In this document: in pieces, positions 2,996 through 63,492 of the stretch
How positions within the stretch are numbered: the stretch's first letter is position 1
Layout of the letters: each line of letters opens with the position of its first letter
Program-made: the position numbers and the translations under genes
Assembly: GCA_965116595.1 (NCBI GenBank)
Contig: OZ220708.1
Coordinates: 169,187-233,186, forward strand
From: Arenicellales bacterium
GTDB lineage: Bacteria > Pseudomonadota > Gammaproteobacteria > Arenicellales > Poriferihabitantaceae
Direction of reading: 5' to 3'
DNA length: 64,000 nt
The notes under the pieces: model-generated
Seen by the model: the letters and a program-made list of their open reading frames with translations, nothing else
What the model was told of the DNA's origin: nothing
Database searches by the model: none

Positions 2996-3757
2996 ATGCC
3001 CGTACCTGACCGCTCACAGAGCCTGGCGGTTCTGATTGATGCCGACAATACCAGCGAACGTTACGCTCACGCGATCTTCGAGGAGATCGCCAAGCTGGGC
3101 GAAGCTAACGTGCGACGGATTTACGGCGATTTCTCCGGCGCTCGCCTTGCCGGATGGGACAAGAGGATTCAGTCTCTTGCAATCCTGCAACATCAGCAAC
3201 GCAACAATACAACCGGCAAAAACGCCGCCGACATCGCGCTTGTGATTGACGCCATGGACCTGATGCACAAAGGTAAGCTGGACGGCTTCTGCCTGATCAG
3301 TTCGGACAGCGATTTCACCCGACTGGCGCAACGTCTGCGGGAGGATGGACTGGTGGTCTACGGCTTTGGAGAGCGCAAGACCCCGGAAGCATTCCGCAGC
3401 GCCTGCAACCGGTTCATCTATGTCGAGAATCTGATGGAAGCGGGAGAAGAAAAAGGGGATGGCAGGACGGCTGCCGCACCATCGTCGGCAGCAAAAAAGG
3501 AGCCGCCTTCAAAGGCCGTGAAGATCATCGCCAGGGCGATAGAGGAATCGGACGACGATGGCTGGATAAATCTGGGTATTGTTGGCGCCCGGATATTCGG
3601 CACGGCGCCGGATTTCGACCCGCGCACCTATGGCTGCCCCAACCTGAGCACGCTGGCCACGAAGTCCGGCGGTTTTGAAATCCAGAAGAGTCCGGGCAAC
3701 GCGGTGCATATCCGCCGCAAGGCGCAGGAAAAACCGAAAGGCAGAAAGGCCAAATGA
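2996..3757 (+). CDS. NYN-domain (LabA/PIN-like) protein with C-terminal OST-HTH/LOTUS domain
   Basis: The N-terminus (LAVLIDADN...GKNAADIALVIDAMDL...FCLISSDSDFTRLAQRLRE.G..VYGFG) is typical of NYN ribonuclease-like proteins. The C-terminus (WINLGIVGARI....DFDPRTYGC.NLS.L) is OST-HTH-like. Confidence 0.8.
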   Translation: MPVPDRSQSLAVLIDADNTSERYAHAIFEEIAKLGEANVRRIYGDFSGARLAGWDKRIQSLAILQHQQRNNTTGKNAADIALVIDAMDLMHKGKLDGFCLISSDSDFTRLAQRLREDGLVVYGFGERKTPEAFRSACNRFIYVENLMEAGEEKGDGRTAAAPSSAAKKEPPSKAVKIIARAIEESDDDGWINLGIVGARIFGTAPDFDPRTYGCPNLSTLATKSGGFEIQKSPGNAVHIRRKAQEKPKGRKAK

Positions 3758-3771
3758 CCGGTACCCAACCA

Positions 3772-3808
3772 TCATCGTAGGGGCAGGCCACCGTGCCTGC
3801 CCGCGAAC
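3772..3808. repeat. REP-like element (family B, gtaggg[ga]caggccaccgtgcctg[ct]ccgc)
   Basis: Imperfect palindrome. Near-identical copies lie at about 23378, 29381-29545, 32462-32566 and 34300, and within the 47.0 kb array. Confidence 0.7.
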
Positions 3809-3810
3809 CT

Positions 3811-4083
3811 TCATATTGATAGATCACGATAAAAGTTCTCGTGCGAACCCAGGGCGAGCAACGTCATGCAGTCCGGTTTTTTCTCATACAGATATGCCAA
3901 CAGATATTGTTTATCAGCCACTTTATATTTATATACACGCACCCCCGCCAGTCCCCCCTTTTTCATATCGCCAATACCGGTGTCGGCGATCAGCTTCCTG
4001 ACCGCATCATCGACAGCCGTTTTTTCTTTCCGGTGAAGCTTTTTGACCGTTCTTGAAAAAACTCCGGTTTGAACAACCTTCAT
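3811..4083 (-). CDS. RelE/ParE-family type II toxin
   Basis: The 90-aa ORF (...VDDAVRKLIADTGIGDMKKGGLAGVRVYKYKVADKQYLLAYLYEKK..MTLLALGSHENFY) has the RelE/ParE beta-sheet pattern. It overlaps the upstream antitoxin ORF by 4 nt. Confidence 0.75.
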   Translation of the reverse strand: MKVVQTGVFSRTVKKLHRKEKTAVDDAVRKLIADTGIGDMKKGGLAGVRVYKYKVADKQYLLAYLYEKKPDCMTLLALGSHENFYRDLSI

Positions 4084-4298
4084 CCGAATTGGTATTCGGT
4101 GAGACCAGCCGCATCCGCCTCTTCCAGCCCAATCAATACATCTTTCACAAAGCCCAGCGGCAAGTCAGGATTTTCCTCGGAAATCCTGCCAATCGTTGCC
4201 CAGTACTCAATCTGTTTGGGGGGCGAACGGTGAAACACCCTGGCATACGCAGTCGCATCAGCGACTAACTGATCCGACAGTTTGATGGCTTTAGGCAT
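4080..4298 (-). CDS. ParD-like/RHH-type antitoxin partner of the RelE-family toxin
   Basis: I chose the internal ATG at 4298, which is preceded by GAGGAAG. This gives a 72-aa product, MPKAIKLSDQLVADATAYARVFHRSPPKQIEYWATIGR.... The longer 117-aa track ORF has no support upstream of this start. Confidence 0.6.
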   Translation of the reverse strand: MPKAIKLSDQLVADATAYARVFHRSPPKQIEYWATIGRISEENPDLPLGFVKDVLIGLEEADAAGLTEYQFG

Positions 4299-4638
4299 AA
4301 TCTTCCTCGTGGCAATGCCAGTGAATAAACACCTATTATAGCCAATAGGTTCCTTTTTACAACCTATAGAGTTATCCAAGAAGGACGGATTTGTGATATC
4401 CTCGCCCCGGTATTTCAACTCCGAATCAATCATCCCATCAAGGCAGAGTGACGATGTGTGAAGAAAATCCGTTTGTAGAAATCCGTTCAGGGGAGCTTGC
4501 CGCCCCGGGATTGCCGTTCAGCCATTGCAAGGCACGACCGGCGTGCCGGCGGGATTGCGATGAGACGTTCGCCGGCATTGTTTCTTCTCTTCGCATTCCG
4601 GGCGCTGACTCCTGCCGTCGCGACTGCCGGGGACGGCG

Positions 4639-6705
4639 ATGACACGGGATCCGCGCTACGACGTGCTGTTCGAGCCGGTGCGCATCGGCCCGGTGACCGC
4701 AAAGAACCGCTTCTACCAGGTCCCCCACTGCAACGGCGCCGGCGACTGGTCGCCGCGGGCGACGGCCGCGATGCGCGAGGTCAAGGCCGAAGGCGGCTGG
4801 GGCGTGGTCTGCACCGAGAACATGATGGTGGACGCGTGGAGCGACATCAGTCCGTTTCCGGCGGTGCGGCTGTGGAGCGACGAGGATCTGCCGGGGCAAC
4901 GCGAGATGGTCGAGCGTGTACACGGCCACGGCGCGCTGGCCGGCTGCGAGCTGGCCCATTTTGGAATCGCCGCCGCCAATCGCACCACTCGCCATCTCCC
5001 GCTCGGCCCATCGAGCCGCATGACCATGGAGTCCATCGACCCGCGGCAGTCGCGGCGCATGGACACCGGAGACATCCGGCGCTTTCGGCGCCGCCACCGC
5101 GAGGCCGCGTTACGGGCCAAGCGTGTCGGCTTCGACGTCGTCTACCTCTACTGCCTGCACGAGAATTCGATCATCTCGCAGTTCTTCTCGCGCAGGATCA
5201 ACGACCGCGGCGACGAGTACGGCGGTAGCTTCGAGAACCGGACCCGGCTGTTCCGCGAACTGCTCGAAGACACCCTGGATGCGGTGGGGGACCGCTGCGC
5301 GGTGGCGGTGAGGATTGCCGTGGCGGAACTGGCCGGCCAACCCGTCGTCGAGCCGTCGGAACTGCGCGACATCATCGAGTTGCAGGCCGAGGTGCCCGAC
5401 CTATGGGACGTCAACCTCAACGACTGGTCCTTCGACTCCGCCACCTCCCGGTTCGCGGGGGAAGGGCACGAGGAGCCGCACGTGGCGTTCGTCAAGTCCG
5501 TGACCACGAAGCCGGTGGTCGGGGTCGGCCGGTTCACCTCTCCCGAAACCATGCTCTCGCAGGTGAGGCGGGGCATCATCGACTTCGTCGGCGCGGCGCG
5601 CCCGTCCATTGCCGACCCGTTCCTGCCCAAGAAGATCGAGGAGGGCCGCCTCGACGAGATCCGCGAGTGCATCGGCTGCAACATCTGCGTGGCCGGCGAG
5701 AACAGCTTCACCCCCATGCGGTGCACGCAGAACCCGACCATCATGGAGGAGTGGCGCCGCGGCTGGCATCCCGAGCGGGTGCCGCGAAGCGAGCGTTGCG
5801 AGCCGGTGCTGATCGTGGGCGCCGGCGCGGCCGGTCTGGAGTGCGCGCTGACGCTCGCGCGGCGCGGCCATCCGGTGACGCTCGCCGAGGCATCGGAGCA
5901 TCTGGGCGGAAGGGTCCTGCGCGAGAGTCAGCTCCCCGGCCTCGCCGAGTGGATTCGGGTGCGCGACTACCGGGTCGGGCAGCTTCGGACGATGCCCGGT
6001 GTCGACATCTATCCGGCCTCCGAGCTGACCGCCGAGGACGTGCTCGAATTCGGGGCGCAGCGCGTGGTCTGCGCCACCGGGGCGTACTGGCGCCGCGACG
6101 GCTGTGGCCGCCACCACCGGGCGCCGCCGCTCGATCCGGCGGAGCCCGGACTGTTCACGCCGGACGACGTGATGGACGGCGCCTGCATCGAGGGTCCGGT
6201 CGTCATCTACGACGACGACGGGGCCTATCTGGCGGCGGCCCTTGCCGAGAAGCTGCTCGCGGACGACGCCGAGGTCGCCATCGTGACGCCGCACGCCACG
6301 TTCGCGCGGTGGACGGCCCTCACCCTCGAACAGGACCGTCTGACGCGGCGGATCCTGGAGCGGGGAGTCCGTCTGGAGCTGGCCACGCAGCTCGGGAGGT
6401 TCGACCACGAGGGCGTGCACTGCGAATGCGTGTATACCGGTCGGACGGTGAGCTTGCCTGCAGCCTCGCTCGTGGTCGTCACCTCGAGGATGCCGAACGA
6501 CCGCCTGTTTAGGGCACTTCAGGCTCGGCCGCAGGCGCTGTCCGAGGCGGGCATCGAGCGGGTCGACCACATCGGCGACTGCGATGCGCCCGGACTGATC
6601 GCTCATGCCGTCTTTGCCGGGCACGAGTTGGCGCGCCGATTCGATGCACCCGAGGGGGAGCAACTTTCCTGTCGGCGTGAGCACCCGGCGGCGATGCACG
6701 GGTGA
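4639..6705 (+). CDS. Trimethylamine/dimethylamine/histamine dehydrogenase-family iron-sulfur flavoprotein (OYE-like FMN domain plus FAD/NAD(P)-binding domain)
   Basis: The N-terminus [33 protein letters not shown] parallels TMADH ([33 protein letters not shown]), including the FMN-linking Cys. The 4Fe-4S motif CIGCNICV...C and the dinucleotide fold [12 protein letters not shown] are present. The gene is strikingly GC-rich. Confidence 0.85.
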   Translation: [688 protein letters not shown]

Positions 6706-16761: not shown

Positions 16762-16777
16762 CAGGGGGCAATCCAAT

Positions 16778-16843
16778 CACTCCCCCCCTCGAGGGGGAGT
16801 CACAGAAGCCGAGCCGTCAAGCGACGGCTGATGTGGTGGGGGG
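16778..16843. repeat. Composite palindromic repeat, family A (cactcccccc-tcga-gggggagtg, variable hairpin, tggtgggggg)
   Basis: Full-length intergenic copy between ispB and thiDE. Related copies lie at 48661-48711, 50437-50502, 50935-50998, 52302-52354, 54238-54346, 54728-54780 and 54851-54873. Confidence 0.85.
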
Positions 16844-16867
16844 CCTGTGCCTGTCCGCCGAATCTTC

Positions 16868-46982: not shown

Positions 46983-47014
46983 TCACCCGAACCCTGCGTA
47001 GGGGCGGGTCCCTG

Positions 47015-47345
47015 TGCCCGCCCACCGTGGCTGTCCGGGGCATCCCCCGACCCTCATTTCGTCATTCCCGCGGAAGCGGGAATCCACATTGCGATCATCA
47101 ACCGCATTCGTAACGGCATCCCCCGTGCCCGCCCACCGTGGCTGTCCGGGGCATCCCCCGACCCTCATTTCGTCATTCCCGCGGAAGCGGGAATCCACAT
47201 TGCGATCATCAACCGCATTCGTAACGGCATCCCCCGTGCCCGCCCACCGTGGCTGTCCGGGGCATCCCCCGACCCTCATTTCGTCATTCCCGCGGAAGCG
47301 GGAATCCACATTGCGATCATCAACCGCATTCGTAACGGCATCCCC
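47015..47345. repeat. Tandem array of three ~110-bp units, each built from a family-B and a family-C palindrome
   Basis: gtgcccgcccaccgtggctgtccggggcatcccccgaccctcatttcgtcattcccgcggaagcgggaatccacattgcgatcatcaaccgcattcgtaacggcatccccc recurs, with unit starts at 47015, 47125 and 47236. Confidence 0.9.
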
Positions 47346-47400
47346 CGTGGCTGTCCGCACCGGTGGGGGCGCCGGGTGATAATCCCGATCAGATTCCGGT

Positions 47401-48540: not shown

Positions 48541-48660
48541 AAGAATCAGAATTGTTAAACGATAGCCAGAATCGGCGGGAATTATGCACTTAAAATATTG
48601 ATTATGGAAATCAAATTGCCTTATCGTCCCGGTTTAAAGTATATTAATCCGGCTGTCGGC

Positions 48661-48711
48661 GGGGGGAGTCACAGAGGCCGAGCCATCAGGCGACGGCTGA
48701 TGCGTGGGGGG
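48661..48711. repeat. Family A repeat, partial copy (lacks left palindrome arm)
   Basis: ggggggagtcacagaggccgagccatcaggcgacggctgatgcgtggggggg lies upstream of the acyl-CoA synthetase gene. It is what inflates the track ORF start to 48598. Confidence 0.8.
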
Positions 48712-48753
48712 GATTGCGCTGACAGAGCCGGCACAAACAGTATCAAATATCAA

Positions 48754-50394
48754 ATGAAAGAAAATTACGATATCCTGGACCAGGTAAAAGGTCTCAACTA
48801 TGTGGAACTCACCCCGATTTCGTTCCTGCAGCGCGCGAGCGAAGTCTATGCAGACCATCCGGGAATTATTTACGGCAACCGGAATTCAACCTGGAAAGAA
48901 GTATCGAAGCGATGTCGCAGGCTGGCTGATGGACTTAATAAACTGGGGGTAAAACAGGGCGACACCGTGTCCATAATGGCCGCGAATACCCCGGAACTGG
49001 CAGAAGCCCATTTCGGTGTTCCGATGTCGGGAGGGGTGCTGAATTCGATCAATACCCGGCTTGATGCGGATACTGTTTCCTATATTCTCGCACACGGCGA
49101 TGCCCGGGTTCTGATCACCGACACCCATTTCTCCGATGTAGTTTCAAAGGCCTTGTCGACACTGGACAGCCCGCCTGTGGTAATTGATATTGTCGACAGC
49201 CAGGCGCCGGCCCCACAGGCAGGCGGCCAACGCCTCGGCAACATGACATACGAGGAATTACTCGCTCAAGGAGACGAAAACAGCGACTGGGGCATGCCTG
49301 ATTCTGAATGGGACGCACTGACGCTGAACTACACTTCGGGCACCAGTGGGCGGCCCAAGGGCGTGGTCTATCATCATCGCGGCTCCTATCTGATGTCGAT
49401 GGGTACAGTCGCAGCCTGGCAGATCCCGAAATTTGCCAGATATCTGTATACCGTCCCGATGTTCCATTGCAATGGCTGGGGGCATGTCTGGAGCATGGCC
49501 CTGATGGGTGCGACATTGATCTGCAATCGGGTAGTCAGCGCCGAAAACATATTCGCGGCACTGCGGGATCATCAGATTACCCATTTCGGCGCGGCGCCGA
49601 TTGTCCTCTCCATGCTGGCTAATGCGCCGGACGTGATCAAGTACATCCCTGACCATACCGTCCAGGTGATGACCGCGGGCGCCCCGCCGCCGAGCAAGGT
49701 GCTGGAGAAAACCCAGCAGCTTGGATTGAATGTGATCCATGTATACGGCCTGACCGAAACATACGGCCACGTTGTCTTCTGTGACTGGAGGGCACAATGG
49801 TCAGATCTGACTATTGAAGAACAGGCTGAAATCAAATCACGACAGGGTGTTCGGTTCCCGATGATGCAGGCAGCCAGGGTCATTGACGTCAATTCCGGTG
49901 AAATGGTGCCGGCTGACGGACAGACAATCGGAGAAATCGTCCTGCGGGGCAATCCGATCATGAAAGGTTACTACAAAAGCCCCGAGGCCACTGCCGAAGC
50001 GTTCAGTGATGGCTGGTTCCATAGCGGCGACCTCGCGGTAGTGCATCCGGATGGTTATCTGGAAGTCAAGGACAGACTGAAGGACATCATCATATCGGGC
50101 GGGGAGAATATTTCCTCCATTGAAGTCGAATCAGCGCTTTACAAATTTCCGAAAGTTGCCGCTGCCGCGGTAGTCGCAAAGCCGGATGAGAAATGGGGGG
50201 AGACCCCCTGCGCGTTTGTCGAACTGAAACCCGGCGAAGAATCCACCGAAGAAGAAATCATCGCATTTTGCAAACAGAACATAGCCGGCTACAAACGCCC
50301 GAAGCACATCGTATTCCTTGAATTACCGAAAACCTCCACCGGCAAAATCCAGAAATTCAAACTGCGTGAAATGGTAACCAACGGCGAAGTGTAA
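48754..50394 (+). CDS. AMP-dependent acyl-CoA synthetase/ligase
   Basis: The start was set at ATG 48754 (MKENYDIL). AMP-binding motifs YTSGTSGRPKGV, YGLTET, GD and GKIQK are present. Confidence 0.9.
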   Translation: MKENYDILDQVKGLNYVELTPISFLQRASEVYADHPGIIYGNRNSTWKEVSKRCRRLADGLNKLGVKQGDTVSIMAANTPELAEAHFGVPMSGGVLNSINTRLDADTVSYILAHGDARVLITDTHFSDVVSKALSTLDSPPVVIDIVDSQAPAPQAGGQRLGNMTYEELLAQGDENSDWGMPDSEWDALTLNYTSGTSGRPKGVVYHHRGSYLMSMGTVAAWQIPKFARYLYTVPMFHCNGWGHVWSMALMGATLICNRVVSAENIFAALRDHQITHFGAAPIVLSMLANAPDVIKYIPDHTVQVMTAGAPPPSKVLEKTQQLGLNVIHVYGLTETYGHVVFCDWRAQWSDLTIEEQAEIKSRQGVRFPMMQAARVIDVNSGEMVPADGQTIGEIVLRGNPIMKGYYKSPEATAEAFSDGWFHSGDLAVVHPDGYLEVKDRLKDIIISGGENISSIEVESALYKFPKVAAAAVVAKPDEKWGETPCAFVELKPGEESTEEEIIAFCKQNIAGYKRPKHIVFLELPKTSTGKIQKFKLREMVTNGEV

Positions 50395-50412: not shown

Positions 50413-51005
50413 GTGGCACAAGCACAAAAAACCAACCACTCCCCCCTTGAGGGGGAGTCACAACCCGCCGAGCCGCCAGGCGATAGCGGGTGTGGTGGGG
50501 GGACCAACCGCCGAAGCCCGCCGGAGAGCCAGTGGGGGAAAATCAAACAATCCTATTCAGAAAAAACCCTGAACCGGGCAAAATCCCTGCGCCAGAACCA
50601 AACCGACGCAGAAGGTCTACTCTGGCACTATCTTCGCAACAAACAACTGGACGGCTACAAATTCCGTCGTCAACAACCCATTGGCCCGTACATTGTCGAT
50701 TTCGCCAGCTTGCCCGAAAAGTTGCTTATCGAACTGGACGGCGGCCAACACGCTGAACATGAAGACTACGATGAGCGGCGAGACCGATTCCTGAAAAGCA
50801 AGGGATACAGGGTACTGCGCTTCTGGAATAACGAAGTTTTCGAAAACTGCTTCGATGTGCTGGAGAATATATACCAGGCTTTAACATCCACCATTGACTC
50901 CCCCCATGAAGGAGAGCCGACTCAAACAACGCATCACTCCCCCTTGAGGGGGAGTCGGCAAAACAAGGGCGCTAGCCCGCAGGTGCGCCGGTGGGGGGAA
51001 ACGAG

Positions 51006-51009
<4 letters not shown>
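50413..51009 (+). CDS. DUF559 (Vsr/restriction-endonuclease-like) domain protein, copy 1, read through flanking palindromic repeats
   Basis: The core [74 protein letters not shown] is the DUF559 signature. The only in-frame start is GTG 50413. The stop TGA at 51007-51009 overlaps the hsdM ATG at 51006 (ATGA). Confidence 0.8.
50437..50502. repeat. Family A repeat (left flank of DUF559 copy 1)
   Basis: cactccccccttgagggggagtcacaacccgccgagccgccaggcgatagcgggtgtggtgggggg. Confidence 0.85.
50935..50998. repeat. Family A repeat variant (right flank of DUF559 copy 1)
   Basis: cactcccccttgagggggagtcggcaaaacaagggcgctagcccgcaggtgcgccggtgggggg. Confidence 0.75.
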
Positions 51010-52588
<1,579 letters not shown>

Positions 52589-52592
<4 letters not shown>

Positions 52593-52834
52593 CGGTACAC
52601 CAACTGATTCGGCTACTCAAGAACCACCCAGCCGACATGCGAGTCGTCGTCAACGGCTATGAGGAAGGTTACGATGATCTGTCTCCAGAACAGATTTCTG
52701 TTACATCTATCCGCCTGAACACCGGCAGAAGGGACTGGGAAGGATGCCACGGAGATATTGGCGACAAACCGAGTGACCGGATAGACAATTCACCTGTAGT
52801 CGAGGCTCTGATCTTGCGCCGCACATCGAATTGA
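52589..52834 (+). CDS. Hypothetical small protein (81 aa)
   Basis: ATG 52589 overlaps the hsdM stop (ATGA). The stop is 2 nt before the next ORF's ATG. I recognise no motif ([31 protein letters not shown]...). Confidence 0.5.
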
Positions 52835-52836
52835 CA

Positions 52837-53264
52837 ATGATGGACAATAACAACAACATGATTGACTACGACAAGTTCCAATTATCGCTGAAGCGTCTTG
52901 AGGAGCAATACGAAAACCACCGGACACTGGACCCGAACCTGCCGGAACTGATTCGTGAAGGGGTCTCCGAATCCGTCATCCAGAGATTCGAGACCTGCTA
53001 CGACTGCCTGTGGAAAGTATTGAAGCGATATCTGGTTGAGGGGCTTGGAGTCGTGGATGCGCCAAACAGCCCGAAACCGATTTTCAGGCTTGCAAGTGAA
53101 AATCATCTTTTCGCTTCGCCGATTGTGCAATGGCTGCAATACGCCGAGCTGCGTATCGGCACGGCGCATGACTATGACGGTGAAAAAGCGAAAGCCTGCC
53201 TGGCGCTGATGAATGATTTTATCGACGATGCAATCGGCCTGTACCAGACCATGAGCGGAAAGAC

Positions 53265-53274
<10 letters not shown>
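52837..53274 (+). CDS. HEPN-domain protein, HI0074-family nucleotidyltransferase substrate-binding protein
   Basis: VIQRFETCYDCLWKVLKRYL and the Rx4H motif RIGTAHDYD match the HI0074/HEPN family. It overlaps the downstream MNT ORF by 10 nt. Confidence 0.85.
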
Positions 53275-55613
<2,339 letters not shown>

Positions 55614-55650
55614 TTTGCTACGCTGTCTTCTGAATTCCATCTCTGCGCTC

Positions 55651-56664
55651 ATGACGAAGTTTAAATCTGATTTAGTCCGCATTATCAAACAAAATTTTGA
55701 TAATGCAGGTGTCGCTTATGACAACAACATGGATGTCTGTAGTTTGACGGCAAGCTATTTGGAAATGCTGAATAGAAGGATCGTTCCATTTCCCCGCACG
55801 GTTCATTTTTCCGAAGAAATACATAATTCGTTAGGTTCTCTCATAAGAGAATGCGACGTGGAGCGACAAGAAAAAGCGAGAGAGGCATGGACGACGGTCT
55901 TTTTCATTCGCTATCTTCTTGCAGAAGGCCAAAGTGTCAATGGATTCCTGAGTACAAGGATTGAATTTGCGACGGGGAAAGGGAGCAGAGACGGGCTTTT
56001 ATGGGATTTTGGTTTGCACCATTTCCATCTCAGTAGGAAACCCCATTCTGATAAGAAAATCTGGGAAAAAGGATTTGTCGAAAGATCGGACTATTTGCTT
56101 TTCGCTATAATAACTCAGAACCACGCATACTTAGTAGACGTAAGACCGCACCAAGACCCTCAAAACCTCGGATGGGTTCGGCAGGAGTTGCGTAAAATCG
56201 TATATAGAAACTGGCCGGAATTGATTGAACCCCATATTCTTCGAGGTGTGCGGGGCGACATGGTGACGGATGAGGAACTCAGGGAACTCAGAAGAAAGAA
56301 CGTCAATCACTGTCCAGAACTCGGCGGTAGGGCGGTCGCACCACTTGGTGGCGGAACTATGGCGGATGGTTCGAGCACTTTGTGCAAAGTCATGGCAATG
56401 AGGCTGCTGCATGAAATTGAACGTCATCAATCTTACTTCGACACTAAGCCGCCCGATCTTTTATCCGCACTCAAGGACAAAGGGCCAGACATAGCAGGTG
56501 AGATAGAATTCGAGCTTGTCTTATTGGACGAATTGAATCCATCAGCCGAACCAATTGATTCCTTGAAAGACAATCACTGTCTGAGTAAGGACCTATATTA
56601 TTTTGGTTTGGCGGTGATGGAACGAACAACACGTTTACCTATAGCAATTTGTTTCAAAGAGTGA
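55651..56664 (+). CDS. Hypothetical protein (337 aa from ATG 55651; a TTG at 55615 is also possible)
   Basis: Long uninterrupted low-GC ORF starting 2-38 nt after hsdS. I recognise no family. It has the His-rich segment LLWDFGLHHFHLSRKPHSD and ERSDYLLFAIITQNHAYLVDVRPH. Confidence 0.6.
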   Translation: MTKFKSDLVRIIKQNFDNAGVAYDNNMDVCSLTASYLEMLNRRIVPFPRTVHFSEEIHNSLGSLIRECDVERQEKAREAWTTVFFIRYLLAEGQSVNGFLSTRIEFATGKGSRDGLLWDFGLHHFHLSRKPHSDKKIWEKGFVERSDYLLFAIITQNHAYLVDVRPHQDPQNLGWVRQELRKIVYRNWPELIEPHILRGVRGDMVTDEELRELRRKNVNHCPELGGRAVAPLGGGTMADGSSTLCKVMAMRLLHEIERHQSYFDTKPPDLLSALKDKGPDIAGEIEFELVLLDELNPSAEPIDSLKDNHCLSKDLYYFGLAVMERTTRLPIAICFKE

Positions 56665-56666
56665 CA

Positions 56667-56807
56667 TTGAAACCCATCACCGAAACCGAGGTCGAAGGCA
56701 CCGCGCTTGAATGGCTTGCAGGTCTCGGCTGGAACATCGTCCACGGCCCGAACATCGCCCCCGATACGCCGGGCGCGGAACGCGCTGACTACAGCAAGGT
56801 GACGCTG
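56667..56807 (+). pseudogene. hsdR: Remnant of an hsdR 5' end (first 47 codons only)
   Basis: 122 of 141 nt are identical, without gaps, to 60358-60498 (manual alignment). TTG replaces ATG. Homology stops abruptly at 56807. Confidence 0.85.
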
Positions 56808-56819
56808 ATGAAATTCGGA

Positions 56820-57236
56820 TCAGTCAATACCCAAAGCCTCAAAAGCCAGCTTCTTGACACACGCTACAAGTATCTCTGTTGATACTTTTATGCCGGTCTT
56901 CTGGATTTCATTTACAGCCTTTTCATACTGGCTTGCAGCGTTCCTTACATATTCTCCACCTTCTTGCGACAATCCATCCATGTAGGAAATGATAATACTT
57001 CGCCCTTCCAGTGTGCTTGCATCCAAAGTGCCTCCATCTAGCAAACCGGCTTGGATGGAACAAATAACAGAATAGTCAATGTTCGCCTGGTCATGATTCG
57101 GGAAAGCGGCATACAGGTCTGACGGACATAAATTTGATGGATACGGCACATCATCGCGCGCGAAGTGTCGAAGAATGTTCAACGTCAATTCTGTGTTTTC
57201 TATCATTGGTTCTTTACACCCTCTATCGGCAGGCAT
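56820..57236 (-). CDS. Small hypothetical protein, possibly DUF2513-like wHTH
   Basis: It is the third gene of the low-GC cassette. The C-terminal pattern IISYMDGLSQEGGEYVRNAASQYEKAVNEIQKTGIKVSTEIL...LAFEALG is reminiscent of DUF2513 (I.GLT.EGHEFL...). This is a weak assignment from memory. Confidence 0.4.
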   Translation of the reverse strand: MPADRGCKEPMIENTELTLNILRHFARDDVPYPSNLCPSDLYAAFPNHDQANIDYSVICSIQAGLLDGGTLDASTLEGRSIIISYMDGLSQEGGEYVRNAASQYEKAVNEIQKTGIKVSTEILVACVKKLAFEALGID

Positions 57237-57240
57237 TCAC

Positions 57241-58902
57241 TCATGGTTTTGTGCTCCCGGATACCAGTTGTTTCACACGCCCTTTGATATTTTCGTACGT
57301 TACGGTTAAATGGTTTTTTGCGATCTTTGTCAACAAACCTGTATGGCCCACTACATTTCTGACTGGTTTGTACCTAACCGCATCCTTACACAAAGGCGCT
57401 GATTTAGAACCTTCCACCGTTACAGATAAGTAATCCATGCCCAGATAGCTCAATTTTCCCTGATCTTCCCGAATCTCAAAACTTATATTTGCCTTTCTTT
57501 TTCTATCAGCCTCCCTCTCTTCCCATGTCGTGGTTTCTTTTAGCGCACCGTCTTTGAGTTCCAATTCATGTTCCTTGATAAATTTTCGCAGTAAGTTTTC
57601 CGACAAAAAACAGTCAATATAAGCCAGCGAATTAAAGGCTGCGTCATCTCGTAAATCATCCAGCCAGGTCTCCACCTGATCTTTCGCGGGAGCTTCATCA
57701 TCGGGTTTATATTCCTCTCGCGCAGCGGAGTACAAATCCCGCGCCTTTCGTTCTTTTCTGGTTTTTCTCGGATTTTCTTCGTCACCTTCTTTACCTCTTC
57801 CCAGTCGAAGTTCATCCCATTTATCCATAATCCGGGGGAGAGCGTCACGCTTTAGAAAATCCAGCAGCGCCTGAAAATTCTCATCGTCCTCTACGATACC
57901 TTCCCGACTACTCGTGAATGGATCTTTCCCCGATTGATCCATGGAATCAAAGTGAATCTGTCCGTAAATGTAACTCTCAATAATTCTCTGTGTCGGTATA
58001 TGTCGCAATATGTTTTTTTCACGTAATCGACCATTTACGAAAAGATCAATGGTGGCACGTTCTTCAGTGCCTGTGATTTTCAAGTTCCTCGGTTTTTCAA
58101 CAGTCGCTAAAAATCCTCTGATATCAAGAGTTGTAGGCAGATAAACAGCATCACCCTTCAGTTTCCCAAGTTCGGACACATAATCGTCTGTGTGCTGGTT
58201 TATCAGCCATAGAAATTCCGTAGCGTCTGTCAAATCTTTGAGATCATCCATGGTAACTTCTTCATCGTTCACAAAGATCGTGAATTCCTTGTCAAGTAAT
58301 GAGAACCGGAAACTCATTGCAAGCAGTTTCTTTATGTGGGGAATGGAGTTCTTTAACTGGTCTTTCGTTTCTTCAAAGACAATAATGGTCCCTTGGTCGT
58401 GACCACTTTGCAGGTCCGTGATCAAATCAAAATCCAAATCTTCAAGAGGATACTCTTCCGGTTGAAGGTCCTGGGTGATTGCTTCGTCCAAACCGGAATT
58501 GTCTATTATGCCCCCGATATAGGTGGCGCCGCAGGTTTTGGAAAAAACAGAAACCCTTTTCGCACAGGACAGTAACGCCAGTTTCCCAATTCCTTTTGCG
58601 CCAATGAAAGGTCTGTTGCTGGAGGTCTTCATGCGTCCATCAACCCGTTTGGAATAACCAATCTTCAAGAATTTTGATTGAAAATCTTCTCTATCCATCC
58701 CGGTCCCGTCATCCTTGATACTGAAAACGGAGTTCTCGCGATCAATGTTAATCCAGACATTCCTGGCATCGGCGTCCCAGGAATTGGAGATCGCCTCACC
58801 AAGAACAGTAATAAAGTTACGGTACAGATTGCGTCCAAGGTGGTTGAGGACACTCAACGAAATAGCGAACCGGAAAGTATTTTCGTCGTCAGGAAATGCC
58901 AC
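57241..58902 (-). CDS. GHKL (HATPase_c_3/MORC-like) ATPase with an uncharacterised C-terminal region carrying an Rx4H HEPN-like motif
   Basis: Bergerat-fold motifs are present: LGEAISNSWDA (N box), KDDGTGMD (G1) and IGAKGIGKLA (G2). RNVVGH is encoded at 57343-57360. The GTG start at 58902 overlaps the dcm stop by 14 nt. Confidence 0.8.
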   Translation of the reverse strand: MAFPDDENTFRFAISLSVLNHLGRNLYRNFITVLGEAISNSWDADARNVWINIDRENSVFSIKDDGTGMDREDFQSKFLKIGYSKRVDGRMKTSSNRPFIGAKGIGKLALLSCAKRVSVFSKTCGATYIGGIIDNSGLDEAITQDLQPEEYPLEDLDFDLITDLQSGHDQGTIIVFEETKDQLKNSIPHIKKLLAMSFRFSLLDKEFTIFVNDEEVTMDDLKDLTDATEFLWLINQHTDDYVSELGKLKGDAVYLPTTLDIRGFLATVEKPRNLKITGTEERATIDLFVNGRLREKNILRHIPTQRIIESYIYGQIHFDSMDQSGKDPFTSSREGIVEDDENFQALLDFLKRDALPRIMDKWDELRLGRGKEGDEENPRKTRKERKARDLYSAAREEYKPDDEAPAKDQVETWLDDLRDDAAFNSLAYIDCFLSENLLRKFIKEHELELKDGALKETTTWEEREADRKRKANISFEIREDQGKLSYLGMDYLSVTVEGSKSAPLCKDAVRYKPVRNVVGHTGLLTKIAKNHLTVTYENIKGRVKQLVSGSTKP

Positions 58903-59983
58903 GGGAAATTAAATGTTCAGGGGTTACAAGTAAATTTCCTATTGCTTCGGCAAGTTTGACTGGCACAGCATTCCCTATCCATCTCCCGACTTCCGAAAAG
59001 GAGGGTTTCTCCTCTGGTGGCAGAAACTCATAATAATGCGGAAATGACTGCAAAATAGCGGCTTCTCGAAGGGATATGGCCCGATCCTGTTCGGGATGCC
59101 CGAACCGGCCATTACCATACCCGTAACACTGGGTTGTCATGGTCGGAGATGGATTGTCCCAAGTCATACGCGCATATACGCTGGCAAAGGTCTTGCCTGA
59201 AAGTTTACGGTGGCAATCAGCGCGCAAATCTTCCGGCCAGTCACGCCAAGTGCCCCCCGGCTTTGAGGCTCGAATACGGCGAAAATTGATTTCCGCCAAT
59301 GATCGCGAGATGTGCAACGGGTCTATGGGATTTGGCTGGCCCGCTTCAATTTTATCGAGCGACCCTATTGCCTGACGAACAGATATTGCTTCTGCATGTG
59401 TCGGTTTCAGTGGTTCAAGTCCTACTGATCTTGAAGCGACCAAAACCAACCGTCTGCGTTTTTGAGGGATCCCGAATTCCTCACATTTCACTATGAACCA
59501 CTTGACATGATAGCCTGCGCTATCCAGATTATCACAGAAATCATTAAAAACACGTCCATCCTTGTATTTGATCAGCGCCGGCACATTTTCCATGGTTACA
59601 AAGTCCGGCTGCACCGTTACGGCCAACTCTCCAAATTTCGCAACCAGTTCCCATCTTGGGTCTTCGCCATAGCGATGTTTATACGTTGAAAATGGCTGGC
59701 ACGGAGCGCATCCCGCAAGAACGGAAGGTACAGTACCCGTATAGTGGCTTTGAACTTCCCTGGCCGTTAGTTTCCCAACATCCCGAGCGAAAAAGCTGGC
59801 GTTGTTGTTTTTTTGAAAAGCGTATTTGCATCGGGCATCTACATCATATCCTGCGATGATATCGAAACCCGCCAGCATCAAGCCGTGACTGAGAGCTCCA
59901 ATGCCGCAAAAAAGATCAACGACCTGACCCCTGTCCTCGCCAGTGTAAGGCATCCCGTGTTCGGTTAACATGGAGTTAACCAT
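58889..59983 (-). CDS. dcm: DNA (cytosine-5)-methyltransferase
   Basis: All diagnostic motifs are present: DLFCGIG (I), GCAPCQPFS (IV), MENVPAL (VI), QKRRR (VIII) and GNAVP (X). Confidence 0.95.
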   Translation of the reverse strand: MVNSMLTEHGMPYTGEDRGQVVDLFCGIGALSHGLMLAGFDIIAGYDVDARCKYAFQKNNNASFFARDVGKLTAREVQSHYTGTVPSVLAGCAPCQPFSTYKHRYGEDPRWELVAKFGELAVTVQPDFVTMENVPALIKYKDGRVFNDFCDNLDSAGYHVKWFIVKCEEFGIPQKRRRLVLVASRSVGLEPLKPTHAEAISVRQAIGSLDKIEAGQPNPIDPLHISRSLAEINFRRIRASKPGGTWRDWPEDLRADCHRKLSGKTFASVYARMTWDNPSPTMTTQCYGYGNGRFGHPEQDRAISLREAAILQSFPHYYEFLPPEEKPSFSEVGRWIGNAVPVKLAEAIGNLLVTPEHLISRGIS

Positions 59984-60357
59984 GGCTTCGGGTTGCCATG
60001 GAACAACCGCTGCACATTAGGTATCAGGTACCTTAAGGGTTGAAAAGGCTATTATACACTATAATCTTTTGCAGTGAGATTCTATTAGGGGCACTGACGC
60101 AGTGGTTGGGGCAGATATTCCCAGCTCGGCTAATTGTGGAGTATGATCAGCCAGAAATATGTGATTGAAGTATGGGATGTTGTCAATGTTAAATGAAGGA
60201 CAGCGATGTGCCTGCATAATGTATTTTCCAGTGAAGAGTTGAGGGCGATGTCAACTACCGAGGATTCCTCAGTAGTTCAATCCGAAGGTGAACGGACAGT
60301 TTCGCGAAAAGTAAACCACTATAACCTCATCTTAAATTTGCTATCGCCTCCACTCGA

Positions 60358-63492
<3,135 letters not shown>

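Follow-up and report, generated by a model that had tools for sequence, protein, structure and literature searches.

A hairpin-bounded DUF559 nuclease cassette in front of hsdM and inside hsdS of a type I restriction–modification locus

Introduction

The type I restriction–modification (R-M) locus on contig OZ220708.1 of an Arenicellales bacterium carries two copies of a DUF559 nuclease core, one in an open reading frame (ORF) that runs through palindromic repeats into the start of hsdM, and the other in frame within hsdS. The stretch analysed, called the window here, comprises 64,000 nucleotides (nt; contig positions 169,187 to 233,186), and the locus raises the question of what a nuclease gene of this kind is doing at the front of an R-M operon. 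An earlier reading of the letters alone (the original prediction) proposed that a selfish nuclease cassette had captured the 5′ end of the operon, or that it contributed expression signals or function to it. We consider it probable that the ORF is a copy of a small selfish Vsr/EDxHD-like nuclease cassette that is tied to REPIN-like hairpins and tolerated as in-frame translated sequence. The genes of the locus, in which TRD1 and TRD2 denote the two target recognition domains of HsdS, are as follows.

50413..51009, plus strand: DUF559 copy 1 ORF, read through flanking repeats, 198 codons, GTG start
50539..50883, plus strand: DUF559 nuclease core, copy 1, 115 codons, with E, D, H and D present
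51006..52592, plus strand: hsdM (HsdM_N and N6_Mtase in Pfam)
52831..53274, plus strand: NTase_sub_bind (HEPN-like; Pfam) gene in the gap between hsdM and hsdS
53265..55613, plus strand: a single ORF for a Polbeta/MNT nucleotidyltransferase, HsdS TRD1, central helix, DUF559 and TRD2
54207..54884, plus strand: in-frame hsdS insert relative to the empty allele of L083, about 678 nt or 226 codons
54381..54725, plus strand: DUF559 nuclease core, copy 2
60358..63492, plus strand: hsdR of the same type I system, without repeat inserts

The type I set is complete, with HsdM, HsdS (Methylase_S) and HsdR (HSDR_N, SWI2_SNF2 and T1RH-like_C) all matched in Pfam. The hsdS ORF comprises 782 codons and holds DUF559 copy 2 in frame, 3842 nt downstream of copy 1 and on the same strand, as had been noticed from the sequence; the ends of the insert (54207 and 54884) are uncertain by a few nucleotides.

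The Nuclease Core

Residues 52–157 of the copy 1 product match DUF559 (PF04480) in Pfam with E=3.1e-43. Copy 1 scores 146.5 bits and copy 2 scores 140.5 bits, where the family cut-off is 20.6, and a Pfam scan at E≤0.01 returned DUF559 and MTES_1575 alone, the latter below its own cut-off. The family is large, with at least 7916 DUF559 relatives at E≤1e-10, and the best sequence match in the PDB is 3HRL (E=3.5e-29). An AlphaFold2 model of the core, built from 19 clade members (pLDDT 83.7), retrieved in Foldseek the same structure, 3HRL, at 1e-6 (45% identity, TM 0.69–0.83), followed by I-Bth0305I (3R3P) at 5e-4 (TM 0.50–0.57; by sequence E=0.62 only) and Vsr (1CW0) at 0.04. Residues E25, D54, H71 and D82 are invariant across the clade alignment and in both window copies. 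The modelled fold and these invariant residues bear out the Vsr/restriction-endonuclease-like fold assigned to DUF559 at the outset, and the loss of catalytic residues, which the original prediction had named as counting against it, is not found in either copy, where E, D, H and D are intact. I-Bth0305I defines the EDxHD family, the conserved catalytic residues of which are common to Vsr (PMC3239194), and E25, D54, H71 and D82 would be the counterpart of the EDxHD motif.

The cores of copy 1 and copy 2 are identical at 98 of 115 amino acids, a figure that replaces the earlier 96 of 111 while leaving the close similarity of the two copies in place, and at 290 of 345 nt (84%). The synonymous divergence between them (dS) is 0.68, and the ratio of nonsynonymous to synonymous divergence (dN/dS) is 0.13; this ratio is 0.10–0.13 when copy 1 is compared with copy 2 and with the core of the close relative L081, and about 0.1 in every other core comparison. 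The differences between the copies fall 11, 9 and 35 times at codon positions 1, 2 and 3 (35 of 55 at the third). A dN/dS near 0.1 together with this third-position bias indicates that both copies have been retained as working proteins, and selection would be keeping the nuclease active. The dS of 0.68 and the low dN/dS point to old paralogues rather than to a recent duplication; the longest exact stretch common to both copies is 35 nt, there is no sign of homogenisation, and the 35-mer had no match in JGI metagenome contigs.

Repeat Units in the Window

Each repeat unit opens with a hairpin (CTCCCCCC-TTGA-GGGGGAG), which is followed by a further hairpin of variable sequence and by a G-run tail; folding z-scores go down to −4.8. 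The repeats are not due to chance, because the hairpin CACTCCCCCCTTGAGGGGGAGTC occurs six times in the window and not once in 100 shuffles. Eight of the ten window units lie within 50.43–54.88 kb, that is, in the R-M locus, and seven of these eight are inside ORFs.

50435..50504, plus strand: A-type unit with tail GGTGGGGGG, upstream of core 1, encoding 23 residues
50892..50923, plus strand: degenerate hairpin directly 3′ of core 1, also present upstream of hsdM in the core-less L081
50933..51001, plus strand: B-type unit (variant), the last ~30 nt and next 4 nt of which are identical in L081
52299..52358, plus strand: repeat-only A unit, 3′-truncated, in frame inside hsdM, 60 nt, encoding 19 residues
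54236..54347, plus strand: two tandem A units, upstream of core 2
54727..54878, plus strand: REPIN-like doublet of an A unit (plus) and an inverted B-type unit (minus), ~150 nt
16776..16845, plus strand: solo A unit, intergenic, between convergent genes
48662..48711, plus strand: partial A unit inside the listed 5′ end of the ligase ORF 48598–50394

The proposal that family A repeats flank core 1 on both sides thus stands for the upstream unit, and the downstream side is instead a degenerate hairpin followed by a B unit. The doublet behind core 2 ends in a terminal inverted repeat (54725–54751 versus 54851–54877) of 27 nt with 100% complementarity. The unit at 54238, the first of the tandem pair, has a TCGA loop and is read in a frame in which the usual TTGA would make a TGA stop. 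No Rfam family matched the units at its gathering score, Whalefall-1, Gut-1 and Clostridiales-2 being sub-threshold look-alikes only.

The hsdS Linker as the Resident Site

The usual site of the cassette is the hsdS linker, from the central helix to TRD2, and copy 2 resides there. When the core alignment was run against one genome per species, the seven closest relatives (67–76% amino acid identity) came from Nitrospira, Chloroflexota, Pseudomonadales, Ca. Versatilivorator, Binatia (two) and Latescibacterota, and five of them (Nitrospira, Pseudomonadales, the two Binatia and Latescibacterota) occupy the hsdS-linker position of homologous operons; HsdM in these five is 75–81% identical to that of the window, as is HsdR at 77–81% in the four with hsdR captured. 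Among the closest database proteins, a start inside the HsdS central helix (...LFKSWFVDFDPVRAKA...) is very common; the sequence then continues with hairpin-encoded peptides and DUF559, and goes on to read ...W(S/T)VERARAYLDRMDPEIAALFPDRFVDSELGEIPxGWEV, which is the start of TRD2. A search with the junction–DUF559–junction segment against 1.84 billion representative proteins gave 239 matches at E≤1e-30, and counts by hidden Markov model on the 139 newly listed representatives found DUF559 in 114 and its position after the HsdS central-helix motif in 80. Complete S subunits read through the insert account for 46 of these 80, with a median length of 600 amino acids. At least four DUF559 sub-lineages occupy the hsdS linker, each with its own hairpin-encoded linkers and slightly different entry points; one HsdS contains both GIY-YIG and DUF559 inserts, and one Eco57I-type methylase contains two DUF559 inserts. 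Upstream of hsdM, DUF559 was found in none of the five homologous operons sampled from other phyla.

Occupied, Frameshifted and Empty Sites in Close Relatives

A close relative of the locus, L081, is syntenic with the window, with hsdM and hsdR ~90% identical in nucleotide sequence and a his-gene flank in common. Its hsdS cassette is collinear with copy 1, to which it is 87% identical over 596 nt including both flanking repeats, versus 82% for copy 2, and its core has a 2-nt frameshift. Copy 1 is a displaced, right-end-truncated copy of the hsdS-linker cassette, and the idea that an element captured the 5′ end of the operon misplaces it, the normal site being the hsdS linker. For TRD1, TRD2 and the segment between hsdM and hsdS, a comparison of L081 with the window gave no nucleotide match, and the hsdS module has thus been exchanged. 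In front of the L081 hsdM lie an A unit, the degenerate hairpin and a B tail but no core, and the frame that ends at its ATGA contains stops; over the final ~36 nt leading up to the hsdM ATG, with the G-run and ATGA, L081 and the window differ by a single base: CGCAGGTGCGCCGGTGGGGGGAAACGnGATGAAG.

A second relative, L082 (~82% identical), has the hsdS flanks of the window with the core and the upstream A units missing, and its hsdS retains only a half-hairpin remnant and an A(+)...B(−) doublet. The more distant operon L083 has an empty hsdS site, at which GCCAAGATGG meets AAGGGCGG, and empty-site hsdS alleles of this operon family are common in other genomes. Cores are thus present or absent at both sites among close relatives. 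Between L005 and L007, HsdM is 93% identical and DUF559 just 69%; the cassette therefore travels with hsdS alleles rather than with the operon backbone. This pair excepted, the identities of HsdM, HsdR and DUF559 run broadly in parallel, and phylogeny was for that reason set aside as proof of independent movement.

The Copy 1 Reading Frame and the Start of hsdM

The GTG at 50413 lies 18 nt past the stop of an AMP-binding ligase gene (48598–50394), the TGA of the copy 1 ORF (51007–51009) overlaps the hsdM ATG (51006–51008) in an ATGA at 51006–51009, and the GGTGGGGGG run of the B unit stops 7 nt short of that ATG, where the ribosome-binding site of hsdM would be expected; in all three respects the locus is as first described. 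The N- and C-terminal extensions of the ORF are translated repeat units. The native start position just before the core has been lost, leaving an in-frame GTG 42 codons upstream of the core and no ATG, and the inverted right-end unit that closes the hsdS copy is absent. The left boundary of copy 1 is the start of its A unit, because no similarity to hsdS extends beyond CCCGT; a candidate hsdS remnant at this edge (‘PVRAK’ versus ‘VAQAQK’) was rejected after a by-eye comparison of the bases.

The G-run of the B unit is likely the ribosome-binding region of hsdM, and translation of hsdM probably starts from it with or without the DUF559 ORF, because L081, ~90% identical, has a repeat-derived leader without the nuclease. 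Coupling of hsdM to the DUF559 ORF is possible in this genome and is not required in the relatives. The suggestion that the element supplies expression signals to the operon accordingly fits the B-type repeat and not the DUF559 ORF, given the core-less leader of L081 with stops in its upstream frame. A scan from the ligase gene to hsdM found neither a sigma-70-like promoter nor a plus-strand terminator, a result that is uninformative on expression.

Residence beyond R-M Genes

As a general pattern, this DUF559 sub-family is associated with pyrimidine/purine-run hairpin ends and resides in frame in genes of diverse kinds. In a survey of 80 genomic loci picked solely by similarity to the DUF559 core, a perfect hairpin of at least 7 bp with a pyrimidine-run 5′ arm and a purine-run 3′ arm lies within 150 nt of the core in 71, versus 1.9% of 1157 control windows; the 5′ arms include CTCCCCC, CTCTCCC, CCCTCCC and others. 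In 41 of 78 loci, the two sides of the core make up an inverted repeat with a score of 20 or more, often of 30–57 nt and composed of a hairpin and a G- or C-run. The core lies inside an open frame of at least 300 codons in 27 of the 80 loci, and the host genes of the long frames were identified by Pfam.

HsdS: L001, L003, L005, L006, L007, L041
Class I tRNA synthetase, metagenome-assembled genomes (MAGs) of Rickettsiales: L016 7290–10499, L071 6048–9434
PriA, Micavibrio MAG: L076 7500–10142
PrmA, Melainabacteria MAG: L029 5025–6485
Class III aminotransferase: L070
GHMP kinase: L014
Smr protein: L019
M14 peptidase: L038
End-fusions to RuvC, HemN and agmatine deiminase: L066, L045 and L059, respectively

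Host domains are matched on both sides of the insert in HsdS, the class I tRNA synthetases, PriA, PrmA and the aminotransferase, and on one side in the GHMP kinase, the Smr protein and the M14 peptidase. In the essential-gene hosts (tRNA synthetases, PriA and PrmA), the DUF559 cassette lies in one continuous frame, and the hairpin repeats that border the insert are GC-rich even if the host sequence next to them is AT-rich. Members of the clade also occur free-standing, among toxin–antitoxin genes. Phages were ruled out as the main vehicle by the scarcity of relatives in IMG/VR, where 2.9 million contigs yielded 27, at most 59% identical. Two or three tandem DUF559 cores with hairpin-encoded linkers were observed in P0283, P0293, P0012, P0036 and P0056, and at L043 8001–9581.

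The Repeats as Dispersed Elements

From the side of the repeats, a search of metagenome contigs for the exact 25-nt hairpin matched more than 120 contigs, and 142 units in 120 loci were examined. DUF559 adjoins none of the 142. A partner hairpin lies at most 260 nt away from 36 of them, and seven such doublets, aligned from unrelated metagenome contigs, have the ~150-nt architecture and the sharp ends of the window doublet. Hairpin units are mostly extragenic, because just 17% are bordered on each side by 60 or more open codons, versus 61% of random positions. The hairpin repeats thus constitute an abundant REP/REPIN-like family in their own right.

Inside genes, repeat inserts can leave the frame open, as in L001, where hsdM (with two), the HEPN gene, hsdS and hsdR all stay open. 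The hsdM of L006, an ORF of 796 codons, contains three inserts, all in frame: a distant DUF559, a GIY-YIG domain and a short repeat, the last being at the site of the hsdM insert of the window. The A unit inside hsdM of L081 (1645–1721) is 98.7% identical to window positions 50437–50512, the surrounding genes being ~90% identical, and this match suggests that repeat units have been exchanged or converted between sites. GIY-YIG is found in frame both in the L006 hsdM (3566–5956, Latescibacterota; residues 670–739) and in the HsdS linker of P0262 beside DUF559, and it therefore represents a second small-nuclease family with an in-frame lifestyle.

Origin of the Cassette and Alternative Explanations

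The cassette consists of the 115-amino-acid DUF559 nuclease, of PD-(D/E)xK fold, bounded by GC-rich two-hairpin repeat units, which are also found alone as REP/REPIN-like singlets and doublets. Copy 1 sits between an A unit and a B unit, both of which L081 has at the start of its hsdM without a nuclease core there, and would most likely have been placed there by recombination or gene conversion through these shared repeats. The pyrimidine-run/purine-run hairpin ends, free of stop codons in most frames, would permit persistence inside genes; a copy would survive only if its length and frame left the host ORF open, and the insert would be translated as a flexible linker and domain in permissive loops. 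The nuclease is presumed to act on hairpin repeats or on unoccupied sites, thereby promoting its own copying. A selfish cassette, as the original prediction had it in one of its alternatives, fits the evidence because presence varies in relatives, copies occur in unrelated genes and free-standing, the ends are hairpin inverted repeats and the core, with its catalytic residues intact, is under purifying selection; it is the capture of the operon 5′ end that has to be given up. A wider proposal, which we advance tentatively and with less than even confidence, is that DUF559 with hairpin inverted repeats forms an undescribed class of autonomous selfish elements in many phyla, copying itself through action of the nuclease on hairpin or REPIN-like repeats and living in frame, without splicing, in coding sequences that include R-M genes and essential ones such as those for tRNA synthetases and PriA, with the doublets as non-autonomous derivatives or landing sites.

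Several points weigh against a selfish cassette. A single ancient insertion, after which the operon or hsdS alleles spread horizontally, could account for the common hsdS site, so that site-specific re-invasion is unproven for the clade; the downstream flank of the occupied allele (ERARAYLDRMDPEIA versus EGRDTGLPPDVA in the empty allele) fits a single origin, and no clear target-site duplication was seen in the hsdS insert compared with the empty site or in the aligned doublets. Hairpin cleavage, homing and transposition are putative activities. Long purifying selection inside an intact HsdS is also expected of a useful domain, and the solo doublets may be unoccupied targets or the products of deletion. 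The survey of 80 loci was confined to the DUF559 sub-family closest to the window copies, and copy 1 is a predicted ORF whose start is a GTG only, with a weak AAGG upstream.

A domesticated accessory domain, that is, a nuclease or nickase tethered to the S subunit of the type I system, with copy 1 as an extra subunit co-expressed with HsdM, would account for an in-frame position in HsdS of many phyla, for intact catalytic residues at a dN/dS of ~0.1, for the 46 complete HsdS::DUF559 representatives and for the recruitment of independent DUF559 lineages and GIY-YIG into HsdS, HsdM and Eco57I-type methylases, and the ATGA overlap suggests co-expression. We nevertheless regard it as unlikely, if the least unlikely of the rivals, since near relatives are repeat-only (L082) or frameshifted (L081) and empty-site alleles are common; the same sub-family also lies in tRNA synthetase, PriA, PrmA, aminotransferase and peptidase genes or alone among toxin–antitoxin genes, its ends, being hairpin inverted repeats, are of a kind typical of mobile DNA, HsdR retains an N-terminal domain with a nuclease of its own, and DUF559 is missing upstream of hsdM in the related operons sampled (0/5). 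Also unlikely, and ranked next, is a repeat processor analogous to RAYT, in which the hairpins are the replicator and DUF559 is a dedicated nuclease that mobilises or maintains REPIN-like doublets, its gene being flanked by its substrates. That explanation overlaps with the selfish cassette and differs from it mainly in which part replicates. Inverted hairpin units flank the gene in 41 of 78 loci, hairpin type covaries with the DUF559 or host lineage, the doublets have sharp ends in unrelated contexts, and hairpins far outnumber nuclease genes (142 units at 120 metagenome loci, none beside DUF559), but a RAYT-like gene is normally single-copy and extragenic, whereas DUF559 is multi-copy, variably present and embedded in coding sequences, and no strand-transfer chemistry is known for a PD-(D/E)xK nuclease.

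The remaining two explanations concern the fate of the copies in this genome. The original prediction also envisaged a switch, in which recombination between the direct DUF559 copies would remove hsdM and TRD1 and so turn the system on or off or change its specificity. The direct orientation, the 3842-nt spacing and identical blocks of up to 35 nt would allow such an event, but it is very improbable as a switch because the deletion would be irreversible, and neither inverted hsdS cassettes nor a recombinase gene were seen among the ORFs listed across the R-M locus; the copies are moreover only 84% identical (dS 0.68) without homogenisation, and none of the sampled relatives shares the arrangement of this genome. 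It is just as improbable that copy 1 is an inert relic, an unexpressed recombination scar held open by GC-richness and the scarcity of stop codons. The lost native start, with the GTG 42 codons upstream and no ATG, the missing right-end inverted unit and the failure of the scan between the ligase gene and hsdM to find a promoter-like site are what such a relic would look like, but a dN/dS of 0.10–0.13 versus copy 2 and L081, differences that fall mostly at third codon positions (11, 9, 35) and all catalytic residues kept over 115 codons speak for a maintained protein.

Comparison with Known Systems

By analogy, the arrangement would work most like a REPIN–RAYT pair, in that an enzyme gene is framed by inverted hairpin copies, as in the hsdS copy and 41 of 78 loci (copy 1 itself has no inverted partner), and in that singlets and inverted doublets of the repeat are scattered in far greater number, mostly outside genes. 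It differs in its enzyme, a PD-(D/E)xK Vsr-like nuclease where RAYT is an HUH Y1 tyrosine transposase, in hairpins with pyrimidine-run/purine-run stems and a G-run tail, and in a nuclease gene that is multi-copy, variably present and often in frame in host genes. Rickettsia palindromic elements (RPE), reportedly described by Ogata et al. 2000, are said to lie in frame in protein genes and to be translated as extra peptides in tolerant regions. Like them, the repeats here are palindromic and in frame with the ORF kept open (window hsdM 52299–52358 and hsdS 54207–54884; hsdM, HEPN, hsdS and hsdR of L001). RPEs, in contrast, are not known to encode an enzyme and are known from Rickettsia, whereas the present cassette carries a 115-amino-acid nuclease, has hosts of many phyla and retains GC-rich ends even in AT-rich hosts.

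Among nucleases, the closest solved relative is NGO0050 of N. gonorrhoeae (PDB 3HRL), a DUF559 protein from structural genomics. The EDxHD enzyme I-Bth0305I, which is the second-best Foldseek match of the model, appears to have the same Vsr-like catalytic fold and E...D...H...D pattern, and is likewise encoded by a selfish gene at a conserved site of a conserved gene. It resides in a self-splicing group I intron or intein and has N-terminal NUMOD/HTH (helix–turn–helix) DNA-binding modules (PMC3239194). The cassette, unlike it, has no intron, intein or extra DNA-binding domain and is translated with its host protein; no Rfam intron was found at the locus and no Pfam intein domain in the HsdS ORF. 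Vsr itself has the fold superfamily in common and equivalent catalytic residues, but the Vsr family is absent from the Pfam matches at E≤0.01, the DUF559 cassette is multi-copy and hairpin-flanked, and there is no pairing with Dcm, the only Dcm gene (58889–59983, minus strand) being in a separate inserted island 8 kb away.

Whalefall-1 (RF01762) resembles the units in its pyrimidine-run hairpin, second hairpin and G-rich tail, and the A unit at 54728–54781 spans the full model; the match scores 22.5 bits versus a gathering score of 37, so the unit is not a member, and the units are repeats at the DNA level, occurring on either strand and within ORFs. Whalefall-1, a metagenome-only ‘sRNA’ motif, may itself be a repeat of such architecture. 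Membership of the REPIN–RAYT, RPE and EDxHD groups breaks down on at least one defining feature each, and neither DUF559 inside HsdS nor a DUF559 cassette bounded by hairpins was found described in the searchable literature, with subscription-only papers outside its scope.

Implications

If a selfish cassette is the correct reading, a very large DUF559 family would gain a role, as the nuclease of a hairpin-bounded selfish element. In-frame translation in a tolerant loop would constitute a third lodging for a nuclease gene in a host gene, beside introns and inteins, and would explain chimeric annotations in which HsdS, HsdM, Eco57I-type methylases, tRNA synthetases and PriA are labelled ‘DUF559’ or ‘endonuclease domain-containing’. 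The term ‘DUF559 domain-containing protein’ is 14-fold enriched among predicted programmed-inversion targets (PMC9881135), an enrichment for which chimeric HsdS, HsdM and Eco57I proteins may account. Repeats and a nuclease exactly between the two TRDs of HsdS are a plausible driver of TRD exchange, because hsdS alleles differ between near-identical operons. Nucleases as compact as 115 amino acids, each paired with a defined hairpin, could have practical uses as well.

Other Features of the Locus

The HsdS ORF starts with an MNT domain (53265–53600) fused in frame to TRD1, and the same continuous MNT~HsdS frame is present in L001, L003, L007 and L082 and in 14 of the 80 HsdS::DUF559 representatives (P0250–P0278 listed). 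Directly after hsdS, the ORF 55615–56664 (349 amino acids) has no Pfam match and is 91% identical in nucleotide sequence in L082, above hsdM or hsdR (82%). An HsdR N-terminus remnant (56649–56882, 77 codons) duplicates the start of the full hsdR, and between the two lie three minus-strand genes, encoding a 138-amino-acid protein without a Pfam match, a 553-amino-acid HATPase_c_3 protein and a C5-cytosine methylase, so that 56649–60357 resembles an island inserted at the 5′ end of hsdR; in L081 and L082, a Fic/RhuM gene occupies this position. Upstream of the locus, a tandem array (47010–47349) comprises 3.1 copies of a 111-nt unit with 99% matches and is open on both strands. Its peptide (‘...SRFRGNDE...’) is of a type common in spurious ORFs, and the family is distinct from the A and B units.

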